Positions 17,641-43,682 of a DNA stretch of 64,000 nucleotides are shown piece by piece; the first letter of the stretch is position 1; the number at the start of each line of letters is the position of its first letter. Both the position numbers and the translations under genes were made by a program. The DNA is taken from the UHGV virus genome UHGV-0038492; one strand, given 5' to 3'. This DNA is from a virus. Below the pieces are notes generated by a model. That model saw only the letters and a list, made by a program, of their open reading frames with translations. It was not told where the DNA came from and did not search any database.

Positions 17641-17674
17641 CCCTACCTTCGGGTAGGGGATTATTTAATTTTTT
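17641..17674 (+). terminator. intrinsic terminator (UUCG tetraloop)
   Basis: CCCTACC-TTCG-GGTAGGG then T-rich tract; immediately upstream of promoter-like motif. Confidence 0.65.
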
Positions 17675-17715
17675 CTCAGATATATATTACCTTAGTGAGA
17701 TTACACAGTAATCTC
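17671..17715 (+). promoter_or_regulatory. promoter-like motif TTTTCTCAGATATATATTACCTTAG followed by hairpin (copy 1)
   Basis: Near-identical 20-nt AT-rich element recurs at 39209 and 43638; hairpin GAGATTA-CACAG-TAATCTC follows; sits just after a terminator and ~55 nt before the HTH gene. Confidence 0.55.
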
Positions 17716-17750
17716 TTTACGACTTGTTCTACAGATTAGGATTAAATATC

Positions 17751-18110
17751 ATGGCTTACAATCACAACTCTATTGTTTTAGCAAAACGTAAATTCGGTCT
17801 TCATCTTTCTTACGTGATTCGTCATTTGACAGCGAAAGACATTACACAGCGTGAACTTGCCCAGCTTGCGAAAGTTTCACAGCCGGTTATTTCATCTATT
17901 AAGAACGATCATAGCGAACGCCTGAGTCTACCAATAATGATGAAGGTTGCTGATGCAATTCGTCTGAAATATCAGATTACGTTTAATTCTGTTAAAGGGC
18001 GTTGCTCAGTAACGGTTCACGTAGAGTCTGCGTTGGACTACGTTGCAAATACGTCCCTTAAACGTACAGCGAAAAATATTCGTTTTGTTACTAACAGCGC
18101 AACACACTAA
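17751..18110 (+). CDS. helix-turn-helix DNA-binding protein (XRE/Cro-like)
   Basis: ITQRELAQLAKVSQPVISSIKN is a typical HTH; gene lies about 55 nt downstream of a promoter-like motif; ATG at 17751. Confidence 0.55.
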   Translation: MAYNHNSIVLAKRKFGLHLSYVIRHLTAKDITQRELAQLAKVSQPVISSIKNDHSERLSLPIMMKVADAIRLKYQITFNSVKGRCSVTVHVESALDYVANTSLKRTAKNIRFVTNSATH

Positions 18111-18131
18111 TCAACCTAAAGGAGTATTATC

Positions 18132-18815
18132 ATGGCACCGAAAACTAAGAAAACTGAAGTTAAAGAAACTGTAGAAAAGCCGACTGATACTAAGGAAGCG
18201 GAAGTTAAGCAGACTGGGCCTAGCAAGAAGCTTGCGCTTATGCCACCCACCACAGAAATACACGGGGATAAAATCTTAAGTTACACTCCGCGCGCGAGTT
18301 TAACGATGGATATTTACCATTACCCGGTATTCGACCTGTACACGCTTGTCTGTCGACTCGACGATGAGATACTGGCAGTCGTTCCAGGTATCCACAAAGA
18401 AAAACTGCTTACGGGTTCAGTCATTAGCGAGATTTTCCTGCGCTTGATGTTTAAATCAGACGATAAGATGATCAGCCAGATTGCTAGTAAATTGACTGAC
18501 TTCTTTGTTGAGGCTTCAACGTGGTTAGGCTTTCACCCAACGGCTTATTTCATTTTCGACACCAAAATGTTGTATGCTGAAATGGGCGATAGCGTTAAGT
18601 ATCCTATCTTGCTTAATGAAGAAGTCGTTCCGTTTTCCCTTACCAGTCCTAACAAACATCTTCGCTTTCATCCTGCGTTAGAAAACCTGATTGAATACAA
18701 TCGGTTGGAAAAATATTACGCTTATCATCGCATGTTCTTTGAACTTCTGCGTGATAAATTAAGAGGCAAAGTTCCAGATTCTAGTGCAGCATTCACTAGT
18801 TCTAAGCTTTGGTAG
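18132..18815 (+). CDS. hypothetical protein with basic Lys/Glu-rich N-terminus
   Basis: AAAGGAG RBS; 227-aa ORF; terminator downstream. Confidence 0.65.
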   Translation: MAPKTKKTEVKETVEKPTDTKEAEVKQTGPSKKLALMPPTTEIHGDKILSYTPRASLTMDIYHYPVFDLYTLVCRLDDEILAVVPGIHKEKLLTGSVISEIFLRLMFKSDDKMISQIASKLTDFFVEASTWLGFHPTAYFIFDTKMLYAEMGDSVKYPILLNEEVVPFSLTSPNKHLRFHPALENLIEYNRLEKYYAYHRMFFELLRDKLRGKVPDSSAAFTSSKLW

Positions 18816-18828
18816 TTTGTAACAAACA

Positions 18829-18856
18829 GGGAGCTTCGGCTCCCTTTTTCTTTTTA
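18829..18856 (+). terminator. intrinsic terminator (UUCG tetraloop)
   Basis: GGGAGC-TTCG-GCTCCC then T-run. Confidence 0.7.
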
Positions 18857-18901
18857 CAACTTTTTCTTTTGTTGTGAGGAAAGCCGATAAGGAGTATTAA
18901 A

Positions 18902-19888
18902 ATGGTATATCGTAAAACGATAGAAAGAACCTCTTCTGATTTAACCGTAGGACGCTTAACCCGTAGAGATATTCGCAATCCTCAGCTTCAGGCATGTTTA
19001 ACGGGGCCTAACGGTGCGGTGATTCGAGAAGCACTGTGTAATACCGAGCTGAATACGTTCTCTTTACAAAAAGGAAAAACAATCCAAGGGTTTATCATCA
19101 CAAAACACATTTACGGCGACCCAACGTTACACTGCTTGTATATGCACGAAATTGTACCTGGGTGTTTGAACAAACTGAGCCTTCTATTGGTACTTGACTA
19201 TACGGGTTTTACGTACCTTAACCGAATTGCCAGAGGTGTGGAAGAAATCGCCGAGCTTAACGATTTAGGGTTTAGACATACCCACACAGCATATCGTTTA
19301 GGTACACGTAAGTTACTGGATGTCACTTTACCGACGAACGTGAAGAACGTCTCCGACGACTTCTATAAAGACTTAACCGGAGCACAACGTGAACAGCTTA
19401 TGATGTTGCTTGGCACTAGCGTCGTTGAAAACATCAATGCTGACCCTGTAACGCGTTCTCGACAAATAATGCCACAAGTTGAAACATTGGTGGAATTAGT
19501 GCGGCACGTCAATCACTACACTTACGTTTGGATGGACGGTAATGACGTTGTGGGTGTGGTGCAAGTTAAATCACGCAATCTTAGCGAGTGCGAACTAAAA
19601 GCCATTGCGGTAAGTGAAACACACCGGGGCCGTGGGATTGGGCGTGCGTTGTTGTACCGTGCTTTACAGATTGCATCGACAACAGCGGCACCATTAGAAA
19701 TAGGGTGTTACAATAACAACCCAGCATTTAGACACCTGGCCGTAGATTTGTTTAAATTCCGTCCCTACGAGTACGAATTTGTTTTAGTGCGCGACGACGA
19801 TGTCGTCAGTTGGGAGCGTCGGAAAAACCGCGTCGAGTTAGTGTTAGGCGACGAAATGTCATCGTTACAAGGCGGAATTAATGCATAA
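18902..19888 (+). CDS. protein with C-terminal GNAT acetyltransferase domain
   Basis: AAGGAG RBS; C-terminal VVGVVQVKS...AIAVSETHRGRGIGRALLYRALQIA matches the GNAT acetyl-CoA loop. Confidence 0.6.
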   Translation: MVYRKTIERTSSDLTVGRLTRRDIRNPQLQACLTGPNGAVIREALCNTELNTFSLQKGKTIQGFIITKHIYGDPTLHCLYMHEIVPGCLNKLSLLLVLDYTGFTYLNRIARGVEEIAELNDLGFRHTHTAYRLGTRKLLDVTLPTNVKNVSDDFYKDLTGAQREQLMMLLGTSVVENINADPVTRSRQIMPQVETLVELVRHVNHYTYVWMDGNDVVGVVQVKSRNLSECELKAIAVSETHRGRGIGRALLYRALQIASTTAAPLEIGCYNNNPAFRHLAVDLFKFRPYEYEFVLVRDDDVVSWERRKNRVELVLGDEMSSLQGGINA

Positions 19889-21469: not shown

Positions 21470-21478
21470 GGATGATGA

Positions 21479-22256: not shown

Positions 22257-22294
22257 CCCCTCTCTCCGTTTGGAGAGAGGGTGTATTTATTTTT
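22257..22294 (+). terminator. intrinsic terminator
   Basis: CCCCTCTCTCCG-TTT-GGAGAGAGGG then T-rich tract; near-identical to the hairpin at 23304. Confidence 0.7.
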
Positions 22295-22668: not shown

Positions 22669-22957
22669 TACTGATGAGTCCAATATACAGCGCTTGCAAC
22701 GGGCACTAACTGCGCCTCTAGGCGGCGAGATTCACGATCGTTGGGTAATTGCGAGGGTGGTAGAGATTGATTATTCTCAGGGACAGTTAATGTTAAATAA
22801 CTGCTCGACGAACGTGCCTTTCACGTTACCGCGCGATATATTCCGTCTTACGCCCAACGTTGATGAAATACTGACAATTGACAGGAAACTTCTATCGATA
22901 GAACTTCAGCATTTCCCCCTGCCTGGTAAGTCGGTTAACATTGCTTTGTCCAGTTAA
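22646..22957 (+). CDS. hypothetical protein
   Basis: ATG at 22646 overlapping the end of the upstream gene; track start 22478 would overlap most of the upstream ORF. Confidence 0.5.
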   Translation: MSSQNRTNTDESNIQRLQRALTAPLGGEIHDRWVIARVVEIDYSQGQLMLNNCSTNVPFTLPRDIFRLTPNVDEILTIDRKLLSIELQHFPLPGKSVNIALSS

Positions 22958-22966
22958 CGGTCTAAA

Positions 22967-23003
22967 AAATTTAAGATATATTTCATCTATGTGAGAATTC
23001 TCA
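22967..23003 (+). promoter_or_regulatory. variant of the promoter-like motif (TTTAAGATATATTTCATCTATG) with palindrome GTGAGAATTCTCAC
   Basis: Shares AGATATAT and the downstream GTGAGA...CTCAC hairpin and CTCACTTAACTAAA leader with the copy at 43638. Confidence 0.4.
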
Positions 23004-23027
23004 CTTAACTAAATGGAGTAATCTAAA

Positions 23028-23297
23028 ATGGCTAAGATTTACATTGTTGAAAAACGTTCAGGTAATGTTATTTCTTATCACGAAGAAGGTAAACCTGAAA
23101 AAGTTAAAACACTCAAGCTTGAAGGTTTTGATGTGAAAAGCCTGCGTAAAGGCGTGAAGATTACTTTCAAAGGTTTGATTCGTGCAGGTAACTTACACAT
23201 CATCAAAACAGATGGAACGATGGTTGCGTTAGCACCGGCTACCGCTGCGAAAACGACAGCCGGTCGTGGTTGCTACGGCAGCAGTCGTAAGTTTTAA
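23028..23297 (+). CDS. small basic hypothetical protein
   Basis: 89-aa ORF about 25 nt after a promoter-like motif variant and hairpin; terminator downstream. Confidence 0.55.
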   Translation: MAKIYIVEKRSGNVISYHEEGKPEKVKTLKLEGFDVKSLRKGVKITFKGLIRAGNLHIIKTDGTMVALAPATAAKTTAGRGCYGSSRKF

Positions 23298-23303: not shown

Positions 23304-23342
23304 CCCCTCTCTCCGCTAGGAGAGAGGGTACTTTTATTTTTC
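23304..23342 (+). terminator. intrinsic terminator
   Basis: CCCCTCTCTCCG-CTA-GGAGAGAGGG then T-run. Confidence 0.7.
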
Positions 23343-31937: not shown

Positions 31938-34900
31938 ATGGCAAAAGCGGTAAAGAAAATACGATTACATAATCTTAGACCATATACCGGTGATATCGGT
32001 GAAGGCGTTTTACTTTTCTCCAAGGATGAGAAAGATTATAAGTTACCAGTCCGTGAGATCATTGCGGATATTGACACCGTACGTAATGCGGTGGCTGAAG
32101 CACAGACAGCAGCAACACAATCACAAGAAGCTGCAACTCAGGCTACACAAGCAAAGAATTTAGCAGAAACAGCAAAACAACAAACTGACACCGTTGCAGC
32201 TACGGTTGCTCAACAAGCGCAAACTGTAACCGAAAAAGCAACTGAAGTCGGTACAAAACACACTGAAGTGTTAGCCGCGAAAACTGCGGTAGACGAAGTA
32301 TCAGTGTCGGTGAATGAGAAGGCTCAAGCTGTCGCCGCAAGCGAACAATCGGTGACGGCTGCTGCGGCTGATGTAACTAAGAAAGCAGAAACGGTTGCGC
32401 AACAGGCCGGACAAGTTCAACAGACGGCTACCAGCGTCGCAAATACTGCGGCATCAGTTGAGGCCAGTAAAGGTGCAGTGGAGAAAATTGCTGCGCAGGT
32501 CACGAAAGATAAAGAAACGTCGGAGGGCGCGGCTACCCGCTCAGAAGCGGCCGCACAACGTGCTGAGAAAATCGCCGCCCAAGGCTTAGTTGACGCTAGT
32601 ACGATCGGTAAAGGCATCGTTAAACTTAACGATACCCTGACTAGTGAATCCGTGACGGAGGCTGCCACGCCGTCCACGGTTAAACAGCTGAACGACGAAT
32701 TACAGTTAAAAGCCAATAAACATTCGCCGAATTTTACGGGTAAACCGACATCCCCAAAACCGCCGAAGGACTCGAATGACACGAGCATCTCCACAACGTC
32801 CTGGGTGCGTGACGCGATTGCTGAATTGGTTGGTTCCTCACCCGAGACGTTAAATACCTTAGCGGAATTAGCAGAGGCGTTAGGTAATGACCCTAACTTC
32901 GCAACAACGATCACTGAGGAGCTTGCGCAGAAGCAACCTATCAGCCCATTACTCACCGCAATCGCTGCGGTTACAAGTGCAGCAAACAAACTCCTGTATT
33001 TCACGGGCTCTAATAAAGTCGAGTTAACCGATTTTACAGAAACTGCCAGATCCTTGTTAGCGAAAGGGTCAACTGCGGATATTATTAACTTCCTGGGTTT
33101 GAAACCCACCGTTGATAAAGCAAACGGCGCACTACAGAAAAACTCTAACGGTGCTGATATCCCAAATAAAGAAACTTTTGCTCGCAACATCGGCCTATCT
33201 CCTGATACCTATCTGCGTTTCCGTGGCAAAATGCCTGTAGATGCTGATATTAACACATTTGCTCCAGATGCTAATTACACAGGAACGTGGTCTAAGTCGA
33301 CATCAACCAATGCGTCGATGGCAAAACACTTCCCAGAAGACGGTGCAGTCGGTTATCTGGAAGTGTATAAAGCGGGCAACTACAGTGGCGCGCAACGTTT
33401 TACCTGTCGTAATGGTAACGTGTACAACCGTATGTTGTCAGCCGCGTGGAACGGAACTAATGGCCCGTGGTCGCCGTGGAGAATGGTAACTACCGGTGTA
33501 CGCCCGTTATCTACATCGATTGATCTGAACTCTTTAGGCGGTGCCGAACACATGGGTAACTGGCGTAACTCGTCCAGTTCGTTAGCGGTGTTTGACAGAC
33601 ATTATCCTGAAGAGGGCGGTGGCGCTCAAGGTGTTCTGGAAGTCATGGAAGGTGGTCTTTACGGACGGTTGCAGCGATACACTACGCGTCGTGGCACAAT
33701 GTATGTCCGTGGTTTGACTGCAACATGGGATTCATCAAACCCACAATGGGAAGATTGGATTCAGGTTGGTTATCAGACTGACGGTGCTTTCTTTAAAGCC
33801 AATTTTAACGATCTCGTTAAACCGGGTCGTTTCAGTGTCACTGGTCAGGCAACTAACGGCCCACTTACCGGTTCTTCTGGCGAAACCATATTAGGCGTTT
33901 GTGAAGTTACCTTACGCTTAGACGGTACAGGGGTCGAACAGAATTATACCACATACGGCACGGGTGCAGAAACTAAAGGTCGTAAATTCCAACGTATCCG
34001 TACGGGTAACATTTGGAGCGATTGGCGTGAGGTTTTCACATCCTATTCGCTTCCGTTGGCCTTAGGTATCGGTGGGGTTGCTGCCAAGGTCGATCCGTTA
34101 GACTGGCAAACCTTCGACTTCGTTCCTGGCCAGATGATAAGCACACCGTTGAATACCATGAAAAACATTCCTGCGGGAATGGATTGGGGTGTTATTGACG
34201 GTAACTTGGTCACTATTCTTGTAGGGGCGTCGGAGGACACCGGTACTGGTCGGAGTATGTTGGTCTGGCGTGGTACAGTGTCTACTGCTAACTATCGCTT
34301 CTTTGCAGTACGTATCGCCGGTGAGAAGGGTAGCCGTACGATTACGCCACGACAGATGCCTGTGTTAAATGCAGCACACACTTGGGCCGAGAAACAAACG
34401 TTCTCTAAAGGCTTAGCGGGTGAATTGACAGGTAATGCGTCAACGGCAACGAAACTGAAAACAGCCCGTTTAATCGGTGGTGTAAGTTTCGACGGCACTA
34501 GCGACATTCCACTCCCTGGTGTTAACCAGCAAGGTAATCAAAACACCACTGGGAACGCGGGAACCGCAACCAAATTACAAACGGCTCGAAACATCAACGG
34601 TGTGAAATTCGATGGCTCTAGAGACATCAATATCAACACCTTGGTAGGACGTGGACGTGTTACTGCACTGACGGGATCAAACAAAGGTACGCCTGGTATT
34701 CAGATGTACGAAGTTTACAATAACGGTTATCCGACCGCTTATGGTAACTTATTGCATTTGGGTGGTGCTACTGCGCTAGGCGAAGGCGAGTTGTTAATCG
34801 GATGGTCGGGGACGAGTGGTGCGCACGCGCCAGTTTATATTCGTAGCCGACGTGATACGGCTGACGCGCCGTGGTCAGATTGGGCACAAGTTTATACTGC

Positions 34901-36497
34901 CCGTGACAGCATTCCTGGCGTAAATGCCACAGGTAATCAAGATACTACCGGCAATGCCGCTACCGCGACGAAACTGAAAACCGCTCGCAGAATTGGAGGC
35001 GTTACCTTTGACGGTACTGGGGATATCAATTTACCGGGGGTTAACCAAGCCGGTAACCAGAATACGTCAGGTAATGCTGCGACAGCGACTAAACTTCAGA
35101 CTGCGCGAAATATAGGCGGTGTGGCTTTTGATGGTACTAAAGACATCAGTTTACCTGGTGTAAACCAGACGGGTAATCAGTCGACTACCGGAAACGCAGC
35201 CACGGCCACAAAGTTGCAGACAGCTCGTACCATTAACGGTATCCCATTTGACGGCACTAGAAATATATCGTTAGGGCCTGCCGATATAGGTTGCCCGGCA
35301 TCACCTAGTGGTTGGTTAGAAACTGGCGCTGATGGCGCTGCAATAACTACAGCACAGCTAGTGACGTTATTGAAAAATAACGGCGCGTTTACCACAAGAT
35401 CGTGGGTTGCTCGCTGCGCATGGGCTTATGCCGCTAGTGCAAGTATACCTCATAGCGAGACGGGTTGTGGTGTTATTCCATTAGCTGGGGCTGTTATAGA
35501 AGTGATTAGTAACGGCAACAGCACAAACAACTACACGATCCGTATAACGACCGCCACAACGACGAGCGTCTCCGGCGCACTCACTAATGCGGAGTTTATC
35601 TACGTATTTAACGGCGATACTTACTCACCAGGTTGGCGTCGCGTGTACAATACGAGAAACAAGCCAACTGCTGCGGATGTTGGGGCGTTGCCATTATCTG
35701 GCGGTCAGTTGAATGGCGCGTTGGGTATTGGAACCACTAATGCTTTAGGTGGGAACTCCATAGTTTTAGGGGATAATGACACCGGCCTTAAGCAGAACGG
35801 GGATGGCGTTCTAGATGTTTACGCCAATAATGCTCATGTTTTACGCTTTACGAGTGGGGCTGTTCAAAGCAATAAACCTCTCAACGTTACCGGAGATATA
35901 AGAACCAATACTTGGGTTTATGCAAATAGATATTCTATTAACAGCAACTCAGGTTCTTGGATTAGCATGAGAGACCATAACGTTATTTTTGGTCTTAATC
36001 CGGTAGGAACTAGTTCTGCTCAGGCATTGTTAAGACAAGACCATGCTGATAGGAAATTTTTTGTTGGTGGTTTAGGTAACTATCAATTCGGCTTTTACAT
36101 GATAAACAACTCACGTACTGATAATGGCACCGATGCTAATGCTTATTTGCAAAACGACGGTACTTGGGTTTGTGGTGGGAACGGTAACTTTAACGACGTT
36201 TATATACGATCTGACGCCCGGCTGAAAAGTAATTTCTCTCCAATAACTAATGCATTGGAGAAGGTAAAGGAATTGTCAGGTTTAATATACGACAAAAAGG
36301 AGAACTTTAAATCCACTAATGTTCATCGTGAGGCTGGTGTTGTAGCGCAGACCTTACAAAAAGTGTTACCTGAAGCAGTTTCTACTTATAAAGACGCTAA
36401 TGGTGAGGACGTTTTGACGGTCTCTAACTCTGCACAAATAGCTCTACTTATTGAAGCAATAAAGGAGTTGGCGGAGATAATTGAGACCAAGTTATAA
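31938..36497 (+). CDS. long tail fibre protein with C-terminal intramolecular chaperone (peptidase S74-like) domain
   Basis: 1519 aa; conserved N-terminal anchor; Ala/Gln/Thr-rich helical stretch; four knob-like repeats ending W-x-x-W; five copies of the TGNAATATKLQTAR...FDG fibre repeat; C-terminal SDARLKSN motif of endosialidase/T5-fibre-type self-cleaving chaperones. Confidence 0.9.
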   Translation: MAKAVKKIRLHNLRPYTGDIGEGVLLFSKDEKDYKLPVREIIADIDTVRNAVAEAQTAATQSQEAATQATQAKNLAETAKQQTDTVAATVAQQAQTVTEKATEVGTKHTEVLAAKTAVDEVSVSVNEKAQAVAASEQSVTAAAADVTKKAETVAQQAGQVQQTATSVANTAASVEASKGAVEKIAAQVTKDKETSEGAATRSEAAAQRAEKIAAQGLVDASTIGKGIVKLNDTLTSESVTEAATPSTVKQLNDELQLKANKHSPNFTGKPTSPKPPKDSNDTSISTTSWVRDAIAELVGSSPETLNTLAELAEALGNDPNFATTITEELAQKQPISPLLTAIAAVTSAANKLLYFTGSNKVELTDFTETARSLLAKGSTADIINFLGLKPTVDKANGALQKNSNGADIPNKETFARNIGLSPDTYLRFRGKMPVDADINTFAPDANYTGTWSKSTSTNASMAKHFPEDGAVGYLEVYKAGNYSGAQRFTCRNGNVYNRMLSAAWNGTNGPWSPWRMVTTGVRPLSTSIDLNSLGGAEHMGNWRNSSSSLAVFDRHYPEEGGGAQGVLEVMEGGLYGRLQRYTTRRGTMYVRGLTATWDSSNPQWEDWIQVGYQTDGAFFKANFNDLVKPGRFSVTGQATNGPLTGSSGETILGVCEVTLRLDGTGVEQNYTTYGTGAETKGRKFQRIRTGNIWSDWREVFTSYSLPLALGIGGVAAKVDPLDWQTFDFVPGQMISTPLNTMKNIPAGMDWGVIDGNLVTILVGASEDTGTGRSMLVWRGTVSTANYRFFAVRIAGEKGSRTITPRQMPVLNAAHTWAEKQTFSKGLAGELTGNASTATKLKTARLIGGVSFDGTSDIPLPGVNQQGNQNTTGNAGTATKLQTARNINGVKFDGSRDININTLVGRGRVTALTGSNKGTPGIQMYEVYNNGYPTAYGNLLHLGGATALGEGELLIGWSGTSGAHAPVYIRSRRDTADAPWSDWAQVYTARDSIPGVNATGNQDTTGNAATATKLKTARRIGGVTFDGTGDINLPGVNQAGNQNTSGNAATATKLQTARNIGGVAFDGTKDISLPGVNQTGNQSTTGNAATATKLQTARTINGIPFDGTRNISLGPADIGCPASPSGWLETGADGAAITTAQLVTLLKNNGAFTTRSWVARCAWAYAASASIPHSETGCGVIPLAGAVIEVISNGNSTNNYTIRITTATTTSVSGALTNAEFIYVFNGDTYSPGWRRVYNTRNKPTAADVGALPLSGGQLNGALGIGTTNALGGNSIVLGDNDTGLKQNGDGVLDVYANNAHVLRFTSGAVQSNKPLNVTGDIRTNTWVYANRYSINSNSGSWISMRDHNVIFGLNPVGTSSAQALLRQDHADRKFFVGGLGNYQFGFYMINNSRTDNGTDANAYLQNDGTWVCGGNGNFNDVYIRSDARLKSNFSPITNALEKVKELSGLIYDKKENFKSTNVHREAGVVAQTLQKVLPEAVSTYKDANGEDVLTVSNSAQIALLIEAIKELAEIIETKL
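34428..35272 (+). repeat. in-frame tandem tail-fibre repeats (about 38 aa each), five copies interrupted by one knob-like domain
   Basis: Protein-level repeats GNQNTTGNAGTATKLQTARNINGVKFDGSRDI and variants; nucleotide copies are diverged. Confidence 0.8.
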
Positions 36498-36501
36498 TTA
36501 T

Positions 36502-36524
36502 CAGTGAGGGGTTCCCCCTCACTG
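36502..36524 (+). terminator. hairpin after the long fibre gene (no T-run)
   Basis: CAGTGAGGGG-TT-CCCCTCACTG perfect palindrome directly after the stop codon. Confidence 0.4.
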
Positions 36525-36544
36525 ACTCACAAGTACGTTATAAG

Positions 36545-37336
36545 GTGGTTATTTTGTCTGTATCAGCGACTCCCGGATGGATTGGTTCTTCAGCAAAAGC
36601 TGAAGCTGGTAATGGTTGGATGTCTGGCGCGATGCACACACTCGGTGTGCCAGTTCCAGGCTGGATGTCGCAATTGGCGGGAAAATCAAAAGAGGCTCAG
36701 TATTCGATCGGGGCTAATCACAATTACAATAAAGATACGCTTATTAACTATTTACGTTCCATAGGCTCTACTGCTGTCGTTGTGACCATTACAGGGGATT
36801 TAGTGTCTTATAGTAGCGGGGTTCCTTGTTTAGAGTTCCCTAGCAATCTTCCAAATTCGTATATTACCCTCATCATCAATCCTGGGGTTACAGTATACGG
36901 CAGAGGAGGCAACGGCGGTTCTAACTCACCAGGCGGTGCAGGTGGAACCGCAATACAGAACGGAATAGGAAACAGACTGCGTATAACCAACCGTGGCGCT
37001 ATTGCCGGAGGCGGTGGCGGCGGTGGCGGCGGTAACAGGGGTAGACTAATATTTGGTGGTGGCGGTGGTCGCCCATTCGGTGCTGGTGGGTCTTCCTCTC
37101 ATATGAGTTCCGGTGCGGCTGCTGGTACTATTTCCGCTCCTGGTAGAGGATCTGTTGGTGAGGGGTCTCTTAGTGCATATACAGGCGGTTCGGGTGGTAA
37201 TGTCGGTGCTGGTGGAGGAAGATGTAATACTCATGGTAACGGTACAGAATATAACGGCGGAGCAGCTGGTGCAGCTGTTACTGGTAATGCGCCAAGATGG
37301 GACGCAGTAGGTGCAATATACGGTTCACGTGTTTAA
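36545..37336 (+). CDS. glycine-rich fibre-associated protein
   Basis: 263 aa; run of nine Gly encoded by (GGN)9 and overall Gly/Ala/Ser-rich C-terminal part; N-terminus homologous to next ORF; start may be GTG 36545 or TTG 36554. Confidence 0.65.
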   Translation: MVILSVSATPGWIGSSAKAEAGNGWMSGAMHTLGVPVPGWMSQLAGKSKEAQYSIGANHNYNKDTLINYLRSIGSTAVVVTITGDLVSYSSGVPCLEFPSNLPNSYITLIINPGVTVYGRGGNGGSNSPGGAGGTAIQNGIGNRLRITNRGAIAGGGGGGGGGNRGRLIFGGGGGRPFGAGGSSSHMSSGAAAGTISAPGRGSVGEGSLSAYTGGSGGNVGAGGGRCNTHGNGTEYNGGAAGAAVTGNAPRWDAVGAIYGSRV

Positions 37337-37352
37337 TTAAAAAGGAGGGTAG

Positions 37353-37865
37353 ATGGGGGTAGCGTCAGGATGGGTCGGATCTTCAGCTAAGAATGAAACT
37401 GGCCAACAATGGATGAGCGCTGCGGGTAGTAAATTAGGATTGGGTAGACCTTTTATGATGAGCCAAATGGTAGGCAAGTCCGTAGGTTGCAAAATAGCAA
37501 CAGCTTATTATAAAACGTCAAATACTGATAAAGTAGAGAACTGGGGTGCTGTCGGAGCCGATTGGCCGTTGGTAGATAAGAACAAAGGAACGCTTTCTGG
37601 TGCCTCGAACTGTGGCTTAGGACGTTTAGTGGGGATCGTACTTACGCAAGCTCACTACATTTCTGGTGTTCCACCCACTGCGGCTTTATACATCGCAGGA
37701 GGAAGGGCAAGTAATATTACAGTAACAGTTGGTGGTGTTTCGCAAGCATTTACTTACGATAGTGTTATTAACGGTTTTCACTATTATTGGCAAGGAACGC
37801 CTAGTTCGGCCTTTATAGCGGCAATGAAGAAGACGGGTGTTACACAAGATTTGAAAGTTAGCTAA
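37353..37865 (+). CDS. paralog of the Gly-rich protein N-terminal domain
   Basis: AAAGGAGGG RBS; MGVASGWVGSSAKNETGQQWMSAAG aligns with SVSATPGWIGSSAKAEAGNGWMSGA of the upstream ORF. Confidence 0.65.
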   Translation: MGVASGWVGSSAKNETGQQWMSAAGSKLGLGRPFMMSQMVGKSVGCKIATAYYKTSNTDKVENWGAVGADWPLVDKNKGTLSGASNCGLGRLVGIVLTQAHYISGVPPTAALYIAGGRASNITVTVGGVSQAFTYDSVINGFHYYWQGTPSSAFIAAMKKTGVTQDLKVS

Positions 37866-38023
37866 CTAATTGGGGTAAAACGATAACTAAAACTAGTAAA
37901 ATAAGAGTTCGTGAATTCGTAATTCAATAATTTTTTATAGAAAGATTGATTTATTAGAATCGGAGGGGTGCGATGTTTTTAGCCAACATTTTACGTCTCC
38001 CCAATCATAGGAGGTAACCATAC

Positions 38024-38536
38024 GTGGAACAATTCACGCCAGATTTGTCGTTAACTTCACTTAACATGGTTATTTCACTGGTTAACCATGACCTCCAGCT
38101 TGACTTGCAAGAGAACGAGGTTGAAGTCAGCGACGTAAAGACCAGTAACGAAATGGATCGTGACACCACTGCTGTTGTAAAGATAAAACGTCCCGGTAAC
38201 AGAACGTTACAAATCTATTACAACCGTTTAACCGCAGAACGTTGGTTAAACCAGCAACCTATTCTGGTGCAAGTAACTGGAGAGGGGTTTAACACACACG
38301 ATTTAATCGATGCGATTAACGCAGCCTGTGGTAGTAACCTGCAACCCGAAGATCTTCAGGACGATTCATTTACAGTAGGAAAAGACGCTGTAACGTTACA
38401 GGTATCACCTAACTCCCTAAGTTATAAAGGCCAATTCTCTGTTTTGGTTTTTGGTAACGGCGAAGAGGCCGCAGTAACAAAAGATGACAACCTAATCGTT
38501 ACCGCAGATAATCGCGTCTTAACCTTTGGAGGTTAA
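38024..38536 (+). CDS. fibre-associated small protein, family member 2
   Basis: GTG start after AGGAGG; homologous to ORF 27860; precedes a fibre gene. Confidence 0.65.
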   Translation: MEQFTPDLSLTSLNMVISLVNHDLQLDLQENEVEVSDVKTSNEMDRDTTAVVKIKRPGNRTLQIYYNRLTAERWLNQQPILVQVTGEGFNTHDLIDAINAACGSNLQPEDLQDDSFTVGKDAVTLQVSPNSLSYKGQFSVLVFGNGEEAAVTKDDNLIVTADNRVLTFGG

Positions 38537-38538
38537 CA

Positions 38539-39159
38539 GTGGCTGAACTGGTAGGAAAGGTACGCATTCACGAGCTACCGTCACTTTCAGAAGACATTAC
38601 TGGTGTGGTGGTGTTAGCGTCTAAGGAACAAACCGAATACCAACTCCCGATTGAGAATTTAGGGGGTGGTGAGGTTACAGTGAGTCCGTCAGCGAATAAC
38701 ATCCTTAAGTCTAACAGCGATGGACTGTTTGTTGATGGCGCACATCCTATTGTACCGAAAATGGATGCAAAAACCTTATCGGGAAATATGGTGGTAGAAA
38801 AAACGCTGACAGGTGGTGCGGTAATCTGCAAAACAACGGTTGACGTTAATAATAGGCTGGGGATTTCGCAATTATCTGGGGTGTCAATTTATAGCCAGTG
38901 CCTGCTGGAAAATAAATTGGTTTACCTGGCAGAAGACGGCAGTATTATTGATGCGTACTTCTACATTAGTAATACAAAGAACACGGCCAGTACAATAACC
39001 CACACCATTCGGGTTGTCTTAGCGAAAGTACCTTCTAAAGTTGTCGATATCACCGATTTATCTGAAACTGAGGTGCAGTATCAGGATGCTAATTTGCCTG
39101 TTAAGATCGTTATTAAGCATCTTACAGGGACAACACTTTCCCAGAACGGAATGAAATAA
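38539..39159 (+). CDS. short tail-fibre-like protein with conserved N-terminal anchor motif
   Basis: GTG start after GGAGG; N-terminus MAELVGKVRIHELPSLSEDITGVVVLASKEQTEYQL homologous to ORFs 28389 and 31938; terminator downstream. Confidence 0.65.
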   Translation: MAELVGKVRIHELPSLSEDITGVVVLASKEQTEYQLPIENLGGGEVTVSPSANNILKSNSDGLFVDGAHPIVPKMDAKTLSGNMVVEKTLTGGAVICKTTVDVNNRLGISQLSGVSIYSQCLLENKLVYLAEDGSIIDAYFYISNTKNTASTITHTIRVVLAKVPSKVVDITDLSETEVQYQDANLPVKIVIKHLTGTTLSQNGMK

Positions 39160-39163: not shown

Positions 39164-39210
39164 TAGGTAGTAGGGGCTAAGCCCCTACTACCTTTCTTTT
39201 TTTTTATTTT
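39164..39210 (+). terminator. intrinsic terminator
   Basis: GTAGTAGGGGC-TAA-GCCCCTACTAC then T-run; ends the fibre module. Confidence 0.75.
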
Positions 39211-39258
39211 TTCTCAGATATATATTACCTAGAGGAGAGCGAAATTTACATTCGCTCT
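39209..39258 (+). promoter_or_regulatory. promoter-like motif TTTTCTCAGATATATATTACCTAG followed by hairpin (copy 2)
   Basis: Identical core to copy 1; hairpin AGAGCGAA...TTCGCTCT; sits after a terminator and ~50 nt before ORF 39286. Confidence 0.55.
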
Positions 39259-39285: not shown

Positions 39286-40137
39286 ATGTATCACCCGTAT
39301 TATCTCCCGCACATTCTAGCAAATAGGGACCCTGATTACTACTACGAACAAACAAAAGGATCTTTTAATCGGCTCTACATTCGCGAATTTAATACCGATG
39401 AAATGACGGACGACCAGTATCTGGAGTATCTAAAAGACCTTTACGGTTTTTCAAAATCGAATAAAGGTGACTTTGGACGTTCCGCAGTCATTAGGGTTGG
39501 TGAATATCGACATTTGGCTAAGCCTGTTACGTATCCTATTGTTACACGCGCCTATACATCGGATAGGCAATATATTGCTGAACTAAAATTTCCTTTACGG
39601 ATAGACGGGCCCCAAATTAGCGCTATAGAAGTAGAGATTCAACCAATTGCTGAAGACTATATTGAAGACTACTTCAAGAAAGCTAAAGACGTACTCGAGG
39701 AGGGTTTAAGCTACTCTGAAGAAGGAACGATTTGTCTTCTCTCGTTACTCTCGAAGACTTATGTCACAGCAAATTTCCGTATCTCCGATTCCAGTAACTA
39801 CAATACACTTACCCCCTCTAAAACAAAACCTGTTTATTGGGACGATCGGTTAGTCGACAGACAACGCTGGCTTACTATCTTAGATAAAGTAAAATTCGAA
39901 CCCCCTAAACACACCGAAGACGATTTTATTTTATTGCACAACTTTGAACCAATTTATATTCCGACGCATTTTGATCAAGCCTTACGTCATCGGTTGAAGT
40001 ATGTGTTGGAATTACGGTACGGAAAGATAAACGGACTAACCTGTTCCGGTGAATTGGGTGAAGAAGAACGCGAGAAGATAAAAATCGTGTTTGATAAGTT
40101 GGTTGAAGATTACATTAAGAAGGAAGGACAAATATGA
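39286..40137 (+). CDS. hypothetical protein (first gene after promoter-like motif)
   Basis: AAAGGAGG RBS; 283 aa. Confidence 0.65.
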   Translation: MYHPYYLPHILANRDPDYYYEQTKGSFNRLYIREFNTDEMTDDQYLEYLKDLYGFSKSNKGDFGRSAVIRVGEYRHLAKPVTYPIVTRAYTSDRQYIAELKFPLRIDGPQISAIEVEIQPIAEDYIEDYFKKAKDVLEEGLSYSEEGTICLLSLLSKTYVTANFRISDSSNYNTLTPSKTKPVYWDDRLVDRQRWLTILDKVKFEPPKHTEDDFILLHNFEPIYIPTHFDQALRHRLKYVLELRYGKINGLTCSGELGEEEREKIKIVFDKLVEDYIKKEGQI

Positions 40138-40577
40138 AACCAAATACTACTAATGGCATTATGCTACTTTGTGATTCTGAAACGTTAGCAAACCGTATTC
40201 GTGGTTTGATGGAAGTACGTTGGAAGCAAAAGGTTCGCGTGGACTATGCTGCACCGTTTGTTCACGTTACTTGGTTACCAGAAGCTAACGATTTCAAAGA
40301 AAATATCACCACGAAAAGAATTAAAAATTGGTTAATGGCAATCATTAACAAACAGATTACCGTTATCAATTTCCAGTTGTTCGGTAGTAAAGAAGAACAT
40401 GAAACCTTAAAACGCTGTTTAAGGGGATTGGATCTTGCCTTTTCTGTTCGTGGAAACTGTTACACAGCGTTCTTCATCGGTTCTCTTGAGTTATTTCAGG
40501 GAACATTAAACATTCAACTAAAAGAAGATTACGGGATTGTAAATAAGATTGATTTCGAATTCCCAGCAATGATTTAA
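40134..40577 (+). CDS. hypothetical protein
   Basis: ATGA overlap; 147 aa. Confidence 0.6.
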   Translation: MKPNTTNGIMLLCDSETLANRIRGLMEVRWKQKVRVDYAAPFVHVTWLPEANDFKENITTKRIKNWLMAIINKQITVINFQLFGSKEEHETLKRCLRGLDLAFSVRGNCYTAFFIGSLELFQGTLNIQLKEDYGIVNKIDFEFPAMI

Positions 40578-40588
40578 GGAGTAGTAAC

Positions 40589-41431: not shown

Positions 41432-41465
41432 AGGGTTGAAACCCACTTTCGATAATTATTAAACA

Positions 41466-41487
41466 GGGGAATTTACCCCCCCCCTCC
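41466..41487 (+). other. GGGGA...C9 homopolymer hairpin
   Basis: GGGGAATTTACCCCCCCCC about 30 nt before ATG 41518. Confidence 0.5.
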
Positions 41488-41517
41488 ACATAGAGTAAAT
41501 CCCTAAAGGAGCATTAA

Positions 41518-42033
41518 ATGTCTGTAACAATCAACATGAATCTTTATACCAAACGTGAACGTCAAATCTTGGCTAATCAGCCAGGCGTTACTACTATCGA
41601 CGGTAAACCTATCGACCCATTAAAAGTCGTTGTCGCACACAACTGTTTCGAGAAAGACTGGGACATCATGTATTTCCGTTGCCGTTCTGTCGCAAACGCA
41701 CTTACCCAGCTCTCGAATTATCATCCTGGTCCAGTATTAAAAGACTGGGTTTGGTTAGTCCCTAAAACACCTTCAGCGATTGAGTATCCGTCGGGTATGG
41801 TCTATATTCGTCCTGTCGCTTATCCAGAACGTTTAAAAGAATATCTGGAGGTTATCTGGGACCGACCTCGTAAAGAGCTGGTGACGATTATCCGTTTACT
41901 TCAAATGTGCGATATCCCCAATGTTTCGAATCTGAAACTTACGTCTCGCGATGTTAACCAGGCTTACTGGGAACTGGAGTGGACTGAAATGAAATTCGAA
42001 AACACTAACCGCATTTTCTTGCACCGGGGGTAA
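41518..42033 (+). CDS. hypothetical protein
   Basis: AAAGGAG RBS; 171 aa. Confidence 0.65.
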   Translation: MSVTINMNLYTKRERQILANQPGVTTIDGKPIDPLKVVVAHNCFEKDWDIMYFRCRSVANALTQLSNYHPGPVLKDWVWLVPKTPSAIEYPSGMVYIRPVAYPERLKEYLEVIWDRPRKELVTIIRLLQMCDIPNVSNLKLTSRDVNQAYWELEWTEMKFENTNRIFLHRG

Positions 42034-42035
42034 AA

Positions 42036-42317
42036 ATGTTAGATTGGTTGTTGGGCTTAATTAACTCACGTCAACAGGAGCTTTATAAAGAAAACACGCG
42101 GTTACGGCAGCAGCTTAGTAACAATCGTCAAACCAAACGACAATTAATTCGGATGGTAAAACAACAGGCGCGCTGTATACGCGATATCGATTATCAGTAT
42201 CACCGTCTGAATACCTTAGACCCAACAACAAAAGCTTTAGGTAGTACGATTGGACACGCACGTAAAGTCAGTCACGATGCGTTAGTTCGAATCGATACAG
42301 TCGAAGAGAAACTGTGA
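42036..42317 (+). CDS. small coiled-coil protein
   Basis: 93 aa, Gln/Arg-rich helical; hairpin downstream. Confidence 0.55.
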   Translation: MLDWLLGLINSRQQELYKENTRLRQQLSNNRQTKRQLIRMVKQQARCIRDIDYQYHRLNTLDPTTKALGSTIGHARKVSHDALVRIDTVEEKL

Positions 42318-42321
42318 TTAG

Positions 42322-42348
42322 CTCTCCCTCGGGATTACCGAGGGAGAT
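42322..42348 (+). terminator. hairpin (no T-run)
   Basis: CTCTCCCTCGG-GATTA-CCGAGGGAGA. Confidence 0.35.
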
Positions 42349-42360
42349 AAGGCGATTTAC

Positions 42361-42750
42361 ATGATGCGTTTATCTTACATTAAAAGACGTTTGTTACTAA
42401 AAGCTCAACTGTATGCTAACGGGAAAGTTAAAAACTGGCTATGCGGTGAAAGGGTACAACGTATCGTTAGTGAGGGCGACTGGTATACAGAAATCGTGGT
42501 TTCACCAAACGGTGAGCTTATAAACGTTACTATTCGTGACGTTTTAGTTAAGATTGGCAGGGCAGGTGGCCTGCTGTTTGAATCGGAAACTACAAAAGTC
42601 GTTGCTAAACAATTGAAAGAAGGTCGGGTTATATTCAATGTCACCGCCCAGAAATATTACGACCATTTATTCGAATGTCAACGAGCTTTGGACAGAATGA
42701 CCCGTGAGATGCGAAGAATGCACATCACGGAGATCACTATAGGGGTTTAA
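42361..42750 (+). CDS. hypothetical protein
   Basis: 129-aa ORF. Confidence 0.6.
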   Translation: MMRLSYIKRRLLLKAQLYANGKVKNWLCGERVQRIVSEGDWYTEIVVSPNGELINVTIRDVLVKIGRAGGLLFESETTKVVAKQLKEGRVIFNVTAQKYYDHLFECQRALDRMTREMRRMHITEITIGV

Positions 42751-43061
42751 TGATGGAAAGTAAAATCACGAACACAACGACACCTGAGAACATTGTCAAC
42801 TACATTCTCAGTGGCGGGTTATTAGAAGACAACAAAGAAACGTGCGATAAACTCGTTTCTCAACTACTGCCGATTCGTTCAGAATACTGCGAAGTCGTTA
42901 TCCTGGGTTCTGAGTATTGCGTACGTTCCTACTGTCGTCGTTTCGAAGCCTTACGTGTTCCACGTACGTTAGGTGGCGTGATACTCTTAGTCTCTAACTT
43001 TCACAATGCACACGTTCGTGTTGCAACCTGGATTGCTAACGGTGGTGACAATGGTTTTTAA
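42750..43061 (+). CDS. hypothetical protein
   Basis: 103 aa; ATG overlaps upstream stop. Confidence 0.55.
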   Translation: MMESKITNTTTPENIVNYILSGGLLEDNKETCDKLVSQLLPIRSEYCEVVILGSEYCVRSYCRRFEALRVPRTLGGVILLVSNFHNAHVRVATWIANGGDNGF

Positions 43062-43359
43062 ATTGTTAGGTTTCGGAAAATGCAAAGAGTGCGCAAAGCA
43101 CGAAGAATATATCAAGTTATTAGAAGAAACGGTTGAAACGCAAAAAGAACTTATCTCTGAATACCGCGCGAAAACCGGTTCAGTGGAATATCTGACCATC
43201 CTTGTTTGTGCTATTGCTGAATTGGGTTGTGAGGGAAAATTACCTAAAGAAGAGATATTAAAATTATTAAAAGAAAAAACAGAGTTCTACCGTAAAGAAA
43301 TTGATGATTATAAACGTGAAGTTATAAGAGCGAATTGGGAGGTTATTAATGAAGCGTGA
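43051..43359 (+). CDS. hypothetical protein
   Basis: ATG at 43051 overlapping upstream gene end; 102 aa. Confidence 0.55.
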   Translation: MVFKLLGFGKCKECAKHEEYIKLLEETVETQKELISEYRAKTGSVEYLTILVCAIAELGCEGKLPKEEILKLLKEKTEFYRKEIDDYKREVIRANWEVINEA

Positions 43360-43630
43360 AACAGTTGTATTTCGTAGCAACGGTGATGTGGTTTTGTATC
43401 GTGGTAAGAAACGTATTCGTACGTTAGAATACCGAGAAGCAAAACGTTTTGTTGAAGAGTGTGCATGGTTAATGCATTACGAAGGGAACTATCGAGCTAT
43501 CTTAGAAGCACCGCGTTTAGAACGTGCGGTTGCACAGATGGCAATAGGTAATCCTAAGAACTGTTACCTGGCACGTAAGCCAAAATACCTACAGCGGCTT
43601 TCGTTAGGCAGCTTTATTGCTGGATTTTAA
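43349..43630 (+). CDS. hypothetical protein
   Basis: 93 aa; overlaps upstream gene end. Confidence 0.55.
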   Translation: MKRETVVFRSNGDVVLYRGKKRIRTLEYREAKRFVEECAWLMHYEGNYRAILEAPRLERAVAQMAIGNPKNCYLARKPKYLQRLSLGSFIAGF

Positions 43631-43637
43631 TAAAAAT

Positions 43638-43682
43638 AATTTCAGATATATATTACCTAGGTGAGAGTTCAGCTACTCTCAC
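43638..43682 (+). promoter_or_regulatory. promoter-like motif ATTTCAGATATATATTACCTAG followed by hairpin (copy 3)
   Basis: Identical 18-nt core; hairpin GTGAGAG...CTCTCAC; ~50 nt before ORF 43712. Confidence 0.55.

Follow-up and report, generated by a model that had tools for sequence, protein, structure and literature searches.

Predicted early promoters with a 5'-terminal RNA stem-loop in a relative of Salmonella phage SPN3US

The early promoters of jumbo phages related to phiKZ have been described as motifs centred near -10 that are read by the virion RNA polymerase (PMC7598289), with the consensus TATATTAC in phiKZ and TTTRARR_BTATATTACDWHDGTG in 201phi2-1 (PMC7058600). In these phages, the TATATTAC core precedes a conserved (G)TG by about 7 nt and is accompanied by an A/T-rich upstream element, multiple co-oriented copies lie between genes ahead of ORFan-rich operons, and the genome carries split genes for a virion (vRNAP) and a non-virion (nvRNAP) RNA polymerase; OBP and N1M2 have a likewise related consensus, ...TTTCARRYAKATATTATYWAAGTG. 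In Escherichia coli, 5'-terminal stem-loops of the ompA type stabilise mRNA, the decay of which by RppH and RNase E depends on the 5' end. The PeSL (promoter-early stem-loop) cassettes of T4-type phages join early promoters for the host sigma-70 enzyme to stem-loops that are terminators, and a role in recombination has been shown for them. Coliphage N4 injects from its virion a single-subunit RNA polymerase, which transcribes the early genes from promoters with a small hairpin; this hairpin lies upstream of +1, has a 3-nt loop and conserved bases, and is read as DNA.

The DNA analysed here, a stretch of 64,000 nucleotides (hereafter the window), is, judging by sequence comparison, from a new, previously unsequenced relative of Salmonella phage SPN3US (Chimalliviridae). 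Its gene order is syntenic with that of SPN3US, and its portal protein is 72–75% identical to the portals of the SPN3US/phiEaH2 group. The original prediction proposed that the phage uses its own RNA polymerase and that split RNA polymerase genes should be sought. Both the window and its close relatives support this proposal, the window by one gene end:

3–317, + strand: C-terminal end of the nvRNAP beta N-terminal fragment; 104 aa align with the C-terminus of SPN3US gp77 at 82% identity.

SPN3US gp77 has been named the nvRNAP beta N-terminal fragment (PMC5105663), and nt 3–317, which encode a C-terminus of the gp77 type, show that this phage possesses split multisubunit RNA polymerase genes. 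The vRNAP gene is absent from the window itself, but a 1400-aa homologue of the virion RNA polymerase subunit gp241 is found in three metagenomic relatives with 89–93% DNA identity to the window. The vRNAP complex, to which the virion protein gp241 has been assigned, is essential according to mutants in three vRNAP subunit genes. The nvRNAP fragment in the window and the vRNAP subunit in the relatives together point to the split pair of polymerases that the phiKZ-related phages also carry.

Four copies of an AT-rich element lie between genes in the window, all in the orientation of the next gene. The core AGATATATATTAC occurs exactly, on the + strand, at 17678, 39216 and 43644, and the 19-mer TCAGATATATATTACCTAG, likewise always on the + strand, recurs without mismatch at 39214 and 43642 and with two mismatches at 17676. 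The chance expectation for this 19-mer with up to three mismatches is 0.01 copies, and none of 100 shuffles contained three or more, which bears out the claim of three near-identical intergenic copies and one diverged copy (core at 22974). A PWM derived from 38 related instances, with which both strands of the window were scanned, gave 53–70 bits to the strong sites P1 (53.3), P3 (53.9) and P4 (70.0) and 18.6 bits to the diverged copy P2; besides these four sites, no score of at least 10 bits was found on either strand. The downstream start codons (17751, 23028, 39286 and 43712) lie 38–57 nt past the end of the 19-mer, so that the upstream placement stands, while the range had been put slightly too low, at 25–55 nt. 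The features are as follows:

17640–17659, + strand: intrinsic terminator upstream of P1, stem CCCCTACC-TTCG-GGTAGGGG with a T-rich tail behind it; closes the preceding unit.
17661–17696, + strand: predicted early promoter P1, with an A/T-rich upstream element, core AGATATATATTAC at 17678–17690 and discriminator CTTAGT.
17697–17715, + strand: P1 inverted repeat, DNA GAGATTAC-ACA-GTAATCTC, RNA hairpin GAGAUUAC-ACA-GUAAUCUC; predicted +1 at G 17697.
22974–23013, + strand: degenerate paralogue P2, core AGATATATTTCAT at 22974–22986, palindrome GTGAGAATTCTCAC at 22991–23004 and leader CTCACTTAACTAAA at 23000–23013.
39165–39193, + strand: strong intrinsic terminator immediately upstream of P3, a 13-bp stem followed by a T-run.
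39195–39234, + strand: predicted early promoter P3, with a T-rich upstream element, core AGATATATATTAC at 39216–39228 and CTAGAG.
39235–39258, + strand: P3 hairpin, predicted +1 at G 39235; DNA repeat at 39236–39258, AGAGCGAA-ATTTACA-TTCGCTCT, RNA AGAGCGAA-AUUUACA-UUCGCUCU.
43627–43662, + strand: predicted early promoter P4, with GGATTTTAATAAAAATAATTTC, core AGATATATATTAC at 43644–43656 and CTAGGT; the closest to the clade consensus.
43663–43691, + strand: P4 hairpin and leader, predicted +1 at G 43663; DNA repeat at 43661–43682, GTGAGAGT-TCAGCT-ACTCTCAC, RNA GAGAGU-UCAGCU-ACUCUC, leader CTCACTTAACTAAA.

Two of the copies are thus directly preceded by a terminator (17640–17659 before P1, with its core ending at 17690, and 39165–39193 before P3, with its core ending at 39228), and the T-run of the former runs into the A/T upstream element of P1. 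This terminator and the P1 promoter form the sole part of the window between 17000 and 24000 for which Seoulvirus phages show conservation of at least 85%, and the sole similarity detectable by megablast in these 7 kb. The P1 leader extends to an HTH gene (17751–18110, a match to phrog_7126). P2 precedes an 89-aa gene (23028–23297) that stops at the terminator 23305–23328. The P3 unit consists of a first gene at 39286–40137 and eight further ORFans, its ORFs being mostly without a PHROG match, and the P4 unit opens with a gene at 43712–44206 and ends at terminators 46675–46694 and 47164–47193. The downstream units are accordingly as they had been described, an HTH gene block and an ORFan block at 39.3–47.2 kb that stops at terminators, and the leader said to be common to two copies, CTCACTTAACTAAA, is indeed exact at 23000 (P2) and 43678 (P4).

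The proposed resemblance to the early promoter consensus of phiKZ-like phages agrees with the published motifs of phiKZ and 201phi2-1. The element matches the 201phi2-1, OBP, N1M2 and phiKZ consensus, including the GTG 5–7 nt past TATATTAC; the AT-rich core of about 10 nt with TATATTAC or TATATTAT is present as AGATATATATTAC, exact in three copies; and the A/T-rich elements near -20/-30 and the (G)TG at the start are those described for phiKZ and 201phi2-1. In the information profile of the PWM, conservation is seen for GATTAAAAA..ATTTC upstream and CTAGGTGAGA downstream. Several co-oriented intergenic copies (4 in the window, 10 in SPN3US) precede operons of mostly unknown function. The consensus here differs from the phiKZ type in being longer and nearly invariant, AGATATATATTACCTAGGTGAGA, and in that a covarying stem-loop systematically begins at +1. 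The start itself can be placed by comparison: positions -2 and -9 were reported to be conserved in 201phi2-1 and variable in phiKZ, and the variable positions of phiKZ sites are precisely the T of TATAT[T/C]AC and the base located 5 nt past TAC, while T and G at +6/+7 after TAC are invariant. From this we infer that +1 is the G with which GAGA starts, 7 nt past the core. The assignment could be 1–2 nt off, and ONT-cappable-seq in 201phi2-1 showed a scatter of start sites of 1–2 nt. When folded from the inferred +1, the three strong copies keep the hairpin with 0–1 unpaired 5' nucleotides, and that of P1 has none.

The same architecture surrounds the motif in related genomes, where about 12 jumbo contigs of 220–245 kb yielded 29 stretches with the exact 18-mer. 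The motif search that had been proposed for the complete genome was run on the cultured relative SPN3US and gave 10 sites, every one of them on the + strand and outside the annotated genes. Of these, one or two precede gp76-gp77 (the nvRNAP beta N-terminal fragment), one is upstream of a cluster with an annotated RNA polymerase subunit gene, and paralogous SPN3US sites have a TAATCGACYATTA leader in common. Orthologous sites occupy syntenic positions, with the HTH gene the first of the P1 unit in both the window and SPN3US, and the promoter core is unchanged among orthologues whose flanks and loops differ. At P3, the terminator 39165–39193 is kept in five orthologous loci, and the core and upstream T-run (AGATATATATTACCTAG) are identical in six of six orthologues, while one discriminator base (39233, A/G), the flanks and the loop vary; in the stem, C-G is exchanged for U-A among the orthologues, which is compensatory, and G.U for G-C.

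An inverted repeat had been claimed to follow each copy, and all four do have one. In the three strong copies it is significant, with 8-bp stems against 2.3–3.9 bp in the shuffled downstream part (P = 0.007–0.02 each) and hairpins of 6–8 bp, whereas the 5-bp stem of P2 is not (P = 0.29) and shrinks to 3 bp if +1 is at 22993. The covariance model likewise scores P1 at 45.1 bits and P2 at 15.8 bits (E = 0.81). Over 48 instances, the mean MFE z-score was -1.8 and the stem started within GUGAGA in 43; perfect stems averaged 6.6 bp, compared with 3.7 bp for the null, although about 11 of the 38 strong sites have imperfect stems only. All 27 sites with stems of at least 6 bp start them at +1 to +3, counted from the G of GAGA. 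In the covariance-model alignment, which was fitted to the structure so that the percentage is inflated, 93.6% of cells pair, against 78% in shuffled alignments (0 of 500 as high) and 45–55% with a slid partner. Compensatory double changes occur in seven of the eight stem pairs, and the excess of G.T over A.C cells in the stems (39 against 5, or eightfold) indicates an RNA of the sense strand. In this model-fitted alignment, compensatory changes and strand-specific G.U pairs thus mark a conserved RNA secondary structure, with loops of 3–8 nt and inner stem sequences that vary between sites while pairing is retained. The stems are AU-rich (-6 to -12 kcal/mol) and lack a U-tract, and we rejected an intrinsic terminator or attenuator; only 39236–39258 was marginally flagged. 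No Rfam family matched the window at the gathering threshold. The place of the hairpin at the predicted RNA 5' end, and its covariation, had been missed in the original prediction.

Could the host enzyme read these sites? The core contains TATATT, one mismatch from the -10 box TATAAT, next to a UP-like A-tract, and two of the four sites have weak two-hexamer matches of 9/12 (22954–22982 and 43627–43654), but the other two have none, no -35 hexamer is conserved, and the number of sigma-70-like matches in these regions does not rise above the level of shuffles (13 against 21.5 expected; 30 against 29.5). The most conserved positions (the AGA before the core, the final C of TATATTAC, and CTAGGTGAGA) are not sigma-70 determinants. 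Moreover, in Pseudomonas phages with the same core, infection is rifampicin-resistant and early-gene transcription is independent of the host RNA polymerase (PMC7598289), and transcription of the early genes from host sigma-70 promoters is hardly credible here. It is also very doubtful that the module of terminator, promoter and hairpin is chiefly a mobile or recombinogenic cassette that shuffles ORFan genes between genomes. Such a role would account for modules that border ORFan-rich blocks, for leaders common to paralogous sites (CTCACTTAACTAAA in the window, TAATCGACYATTA in SPN3US) and for a module conserved where the flanking DNA is not; yet promoter function explains this conservation equally well, orthologous sites are syntenic and no recombination junction was found. 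The cassettes would resemble PeSL, likewise repeated modules of early promoter and stem-loop that border blocks of small ORFan early genes, and this reading is compatible with a promoter and does not exclude one.

Two further proposals concern the repeat itself. As a duplex DNA operator, it would bind a phage regulator in dimeric form, such as the HTH protein of P1, which would repress or autoregulate early transcription; its coverage of +1 to +20, the classic position of a repressor site, its conserved outer bases AGA...TCT and the HTH gene at the head of the P1 unit in the window and SPN3US all fit. However, the inner stems differ and still pair, the spacing of the arms varies with loops of 3–8 nt, the 39 G.T against 5 A.C cells are a strand asymmetry not expected of a duplex site, and the AGA can also be accounted for as initially transcribed sequence, which together make an operator improbable. 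Somewhat less remote, though still unlikely, is a hairpin that serves initiation by vRNAP and not the fate of the mRNA: a hairpin of the non-template strand might stabilise the open complex, or one in the nascent RNA might drive promoter escape or RNA-DNA separation. In nearly all sites the hairpin keeps its place at the inferred +1, promoter recognition by vRNAP is biochemically uncharacterized in the phiKZ-like family, and the N4 enzyme is a precedent for a virion RNA polymerase that reads DNA hairpins (PMC4496689). Unlike the N4 hairpins, with their fixed 3-nt loops upstream of +1, those found here lie downstream of both the core and the inferred +1, have loops of 3–8 nt and contain G.U pairs that indicate RNA (G.T pairs are poor in DNA), and an N4-type hairpin promoter was rejected. 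In addition, phiKZ and 201phi2-1 early-type sites have the same core and no consistent +1 hairpin, which in phiKZ sites and a small sample of 201phi2-1- or OBP-type sites is sporadic or further downstream; because phiKZ early-type sites do not carry it consistently, vRNAP promoters in general cannot depend on the hairpin.

We therefore regard SPN3US-like early promoters with a 5'-terminal RNA stem-loop as the probable identity of these elements taken as a whole. The four would be early promoters, three strong and one decayed, most likely read by the RNA polymerase packaged in the virion, and the units downstream would be expressed early. The promoter type is already known, while the 5'-terminal stem-loop seems to be typical of the clade and undescribed in the accessible literature; the accessible transcriptome literature on phiKZ-related phages does not mention a hairpin. 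A virion-packaged multisubunit RNA polymerase would enter with the injected DNA and recognize modules composed of, often, an intrinsic terminator, then an A/T-rich element at about -20 to -35, the core AGATATATATTAC at about -19 to -7, a CTAGGT discriminator and the start. The first 20 or so nucleotides of each transcript would fold into a stem-loop of 6–11 bp with 0–2 unpaired 5' nucleotides, which would act in cis on the RNA. That it stabilises the mRNA is a tentative proposal, made by analogy: the hairpin would most probably shield the triphosphate 5' end of early mRNAs, which arise before any phage protein exists, from the 5'-end-dependent decay by RppH and RNase E, and the Shine-Dalgarno sequence, about 25–35 nt further on, would stay free of it. 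No Dip homologue was found, which lends this role weak support. Like the ompA-type stabilisers of E. coli, the hairpins are short, would stand at the 5' end with at most two unpaired nucleotides and lie well upstream of a ribosome-binding site that should be accessible; unlike them, they form one structural class on a whole phage promoter regulon.

The promoter-like element stands on the plus strand throughout, the 19-mer TCAGATATATATTACCTAG occurring exactly at 39214 and 43642 and with two mismatches at 17676, against 0.01 matches expected by chance in the window. These are the three near-identical copies of the original prediction. Its diverged fourth copy is also present, with four substitutions in the core (AGATATATTTCAT, 22974–22986); relatedness is clear from the retained GTGAGA and from the leader CTCACTTAACTAAA, which recurs unchanged at the 43.6 kb copy, as had been noted for two of the copies. 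On reading the four regions the layout was the same in each: the core AGATATATATTAC comes after a run rich in T and A, and a short spacer separates it from the inverted repeat that had been described after every copy. A weight matrix 55 nt long, built from 38 related instances, scored the four sites (P1 to P4) at 53.3, 18.6, 53.9 and 70.0 bits, and found no further site of at least 10 bits on either strand of the 64 kb.

Probable early-promoter copies in the window, with predicted +1 (the G of GAGA), downstream start codon and unit
17690, + strand: P1; terminator upstream at 17640–17659; +1 at 17697; start codon 17751; HTH protein (phrog_7126) and 227-aa ORF, ending at the terminator at 18828
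22974–22986 (core), + strand: P2, decayed; +1 at 22993; start codon 23028; 89-aa gene, ending at the terminator at 23305
39228, + strand: P3; terminator with a 13-bp stem upstream; +1 at 39235; start codon 39286; nine ORFs, almost all without a family match
43656, + strand: P4; +1 at 43663; start codon 43712; five further ORFs, with terminators at 46675 and 47164

The HTH gene block and the ORFan block (39.3–47.2 kb) proposed to lie downstream of the elements correspond to the P1, P3 and P4 units, and an array of virion-protein paralogues begins after the P4-unit terminators. A GC-rich terminator with a TTCG loop lies 15–45 nt upstream of 8–9 of the 14 sites in the window and SPN3US; the terminators of the window carry a T-rich tail of the TTAT/TTTAT type, as described for phiKZ terminators.

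Megablast of window positions 17–24 kb against 50,697 phage records gave a single similarity, 66 nt over terminator and motif at 85% identity, in two Salmonella Seoulvirus records. At the protein level, the window encodes an 889-aa portal-like protein with 72–75% identity to those of Erwinia phages Asesino and phiEaH2 and the SPN3US group, and its gene order parallels that of SPN3US from 76 kb onward. The window phage is accordingly a new relative of SPN3US, at some distance from it, within the nucleus-forming phages related to phiKZ. Closer uncultured relatives in IMG/VR share 89–95% DNA identity with it.

Early promoters of this family, predicted or mapped, have been described as TATATTAC in phiKZ, TTTRARR_BTATATTACDWHDGTG in 201phi2-1 and ...TTTCARRYAKATATTATYWAAGTG in OBP and N1M2 (PMC7058600). 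According to reviews, a motif upstream of early operons is present in every RNA polymerase-encoding jumbo phage; it is AT-rich, about 10 nt long, centred near -10 and read by the virion RNA polymerase, and early transcription in these phages needs neither host RNA polymerase nor protein synthesis (PMC7598289; PMC4666361). The window element, TTTC-AGATATATATTAC-CTAG-GTG, fits these published motifs base for base except that the upstream TTT(RARR) segment is out of register by one base, which supports the phiKZ-like reading of the original prediction. A full-text literature search with ATATATTAC returned, among the matches listed, only unrelated papers.

The genome-wide motif search that had been proposed was run in its complete-genome part on SPN3US, the phage itself being covered within the 64-kb window. 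The weight matrix found 10 sites in SPN3US, all on the plus strand and all in gaps between annotated genes. Among these, one is the orthologue of P1, the HTH-gene promoter, one or two precede gp76–gp77 (gp77 being the N-terminal beta fragment of the non-virion RNA polymerase, nvRNAP), and one precedes a cluster with an annotated RNA polymerase subunit gene. The exact 18-mer of the element was found in 29 stretches on about 12 jumbo contigs of 220–245 kb. In orthologue alignments the core, its upstream T-run and all discriminator bases except 39233 (A/G) are invariant; the flanks, the length of the T-run and the hairpin loops vary. A host sigma-70 promoter was considered and rejected, there being no conserved -35 hexamer and a 9/12 match at just two of the four sites, and sigma-70-like matches around the sites were no commoner than in shuffled sequence; this alternative is weak. 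The four elements are very probably early promoters. The promoter family itself is already known and its occurrence in a new SPN3US-like genome is expected. What appears typical of the SPN3US-like clade is the greater length and near-invariance of the consensus, together with the regular presence of the +1 hairpin, a stem-loop directly 3' of the promoter.

On the split multisubunit genes whose search was suggested with the hint of a phage RNA polymerase, two lines of evidence show that the phage has polymerases of its own. Positions 3–317 (+) code for a C-terminus of 104 residues with 82% identity to SPN3US gp77, the end of the nvRNAP fragment, and three close relatives of the window carry full-length homologues of SPN3US gp241 (76–77% over 1400 aa). 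The latter protein occurs in the virion and has been attributed to the virion RNA polymerase (vRNAP) of five subunits, a complex shown to be essential by mutants in three of its subunit genes (PMC5694885). Pfam did not recognize gp241-type subunits, detecting an Rpb2 domain in a different SPN3US subunit, and the identity of gp241 as a vRNAP subunit comes from SPN3US virion proteomics and genetics. ORF 357–1967 of the window occupies the position of SPN3US gp78, which is essential and possibly regulatory.

The start point was placed by comparison with phiKZ and 201phi2-1. In the -50 to +1 windows of the 201phi2-1 study, positions -2, -9 and -31 are highly conserved in that phage and variable in phiKZ. 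Among six early-type sites in the first 50 kb of phiKZ, variation was confined to the T in TATAT[T/C]AC and to the nucleotide that follows TAC at a distance of 5 nt, and the T and G located 6 and 7 nt after TAC were invariant. Together these leave a single register, in which +1 would be the G of GAGA, 7 nt after the core. For SPN3US this register predicts starts at 4446, 56313, 65432, 94258, 114005, 165706 and 223296. Given such a start, each of the 27 stems of at least 6 bp would begin at +1 to +3; P2 would have a stem of just 3 bp with a start at 22993. Predicted folds of whole 5' UTRs retain the hairpin with 0–1 unpaired 5' nucleotides and place the ribosome-binding site about 25–35 nt downstream, unpaired or weakly paired.

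For the hairpin itself, the window, SPN3US and IMG/VR loci together supplied 48 distinct instances, which were folded over 36 nt starting 5 nt after the core. They gave a mean MFE of -6.7 kcal/mol (mean z-score -1.8), with the stem starting within GUGAGA in 43 of the 48; the longest perfect stem averaged 6.6 bp versus 3.7 bp when the first 8 nt were fixed and the rest shuffled, and stems reached at least 7 bp at 27 of 38 strong sites. Stem sequences are diverse (GAGAUUAC/GUAAUCUC, AGAGCGAA/UUCGCUCU, GAGAGUGAA/UUCACUC, AGAUGAG/CUCAUCU, UGAUAGA/UCUAUCA and GAGCGUUA/UAACGCUU) and enclose loops of 3–8 nt. Because loop lengths differ, a column-based consensus fold of 27 instances (MAFFT and RNAalifold) returned no structure. 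A covariance model seeded with six equal-length hairpins aligned 46 hits with 93.6% of cells paired, a figure that leans high since the alignment is fitted to the model; shuffled partners gave 78% (none of 500 shuffles reaching 93.6%), and sliding by 1–3 columns gave 45–55%. Compensatory double changes occurred in seven of the eight pairs (36 cells versus 9.6 expected). In the P3 stem, comparison of the window with its relatives shows a C-G pair exchanged for U-A and a G.U pair turned into G-C, the other differences lying in the loop. Both the slid controls and this independent orthologue comparison agree with the pairing of the covariance model. Rfam and tRNA scans gave zero matches.

An inverted repeat at this position might also be a DNA operator. 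However, the 39 G.T cells against 5 A.C cells indicate pairing on the sense strand, in RNA and not in duplex DNA or antisense, and we consider a selected RNA structure likely. A terminator or attenuator was rejected for want of a U-tract, and RNase III processing was rejected as well, hairpin stems of this length being too short for it. Two further rivals are less likely: the hairpin might act in initiation or promoter escape, or the module might be a PeSL-like mobile cassette.

The virion RNA polymerase would start on the G of GAGA, and the 5' end of the nascent RNA would fold immediately into the stem-loop. In E. coli, 5'-terminal stem-loops block RppH as well as the sensor by which RNase E recognizes 5' ends. 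By analogy, the hairpin would keep both enzymes from the message. Protection in cis would be sensible, early messages being made before any phage protein exists. Unlike phiKZ, which encodes the degradosome inhibitor Dip, SPN3US and the window gave no Dip homologue by tblastn, which weakly favours a cis-acting strategy. Stabilization may be the main role of the hairpin, although we put this at somewhat below an even chance. The broader proposition, that every vRNAP transcript in the SPN3US-like clade opens with a selected stem-loop from +1 to about +20 that serves as a cis-acting, cap-like signature of early mRNA, is speculative and on balance doubtful. If true, the stem-loop could shield early mRNAs from host 5'-end-dependent decay ahead of phage proteins, and could also mark them for steps particular to early infection, such as exit from the early-infection vesicle, ribosome recruitment or vRNAP promoter escape; an RNA element shared in this way by a whole regulon has not been described in phiKZ-like phages.

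At phiKZ sites and the few sampled sites of 201phi2-1 and OBP type the +1 hairpin is sporadic, whereas in the SPN3US-like clade it appears to be systematic; two degenerate scans of IMG/VR for the 201phi2-1 and OBP types yielded few sites, partly chance matches. The comparison shows that the predicted hairpin is not general beyond the SPN3US-like clade. No mention of a 5' hairpin on early transcripts was found in the part of the jumbo-phage transcriptome literature that was read. With the promoter call, early operons, those of host takeover, can be delimited reliably in SPN3US-like jumbo phages that are uncultured, and its compact consensus could be put to use in phage engineering as an orthogonal promoter. 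Of greater interest is the covarying hairpin that the early transcripts examined across the clade carry at their predicted 5' end. In nucleus-forming phages the injected polymerase makes early mRNAs before any phage protein is available, and the conservation of a structure at the 5' end offers a definite candidate, amenable to mutation, for their survival and ribosome access; SPN3US, for which a genetic system exists, lends itself to testing this.

After the hairpin, a block TAATCGACYATTAATCTAAAGGAGTATT containing the Shine-Dalgarno sequence is common to several early leaders of SPN3US (C of core TAC at 65425, 94251, 113998 and 223289 in the SPN3US record), so that whole promoter-leader cassettes are homogenized within a genome; in the lineage of the window the shared leader is a different one, CTCACTTAACTAAA. 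At SPN3US ~165,687–165,760 a GC-rich terminator, GGCTACCTTCGGGTAGCC with a T-run, lies about 5 nt beyond an early promoter and its +1 hairpin. The predicted transcript of about 55 nt could represent a small RNA or else an attenuator, similar to the sRNAs that are reported to derive from 5' UTRs in phiKZ and 201phi2-1.

In the window, a plus-strand terminator at 16877–16896 is followed at 16920 by ATTTATTAC (region 16877–16930), which scores below 10 bits, is without GTGAGA and may represent a promoter that is very weak or has been lost; its SPN3US counterpart at 92552 is a weak early-type site of 22 bits. The plus-strand terminators at 22258–22281 and 23305–23328 have near-identical stems (CCCTCTCTCCG..GGAGAGAGGG) and flank a 1-kb segment with P2 and its 89-aa gene, which looks like a duplicated or cassette-like unit. 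Paralogous ORFs at 45023–45463 and 46727–47158 (+), both phrog_8484, close the early block, and with the gene at 47326–48174 (+) begins an array, known from SPN3US, of virion structural proteins that are paralogues of one another (phrog_1037). Positions 31938–39159 (+), with a 1519-aa tail-fibre protein (Phage_fiber_2 repeat, C-terminal Peptidase_S74 chaperone domain) and several ORFs, are probably a swapped host-range module; SPN3US has only small hypothetical genes at the same position after the tail protein. Two adjacent radical-SAM genes at 53737–55966 (-) are conserved with SPN3US, whose annotation lists their products as radical SAM domain proteins.
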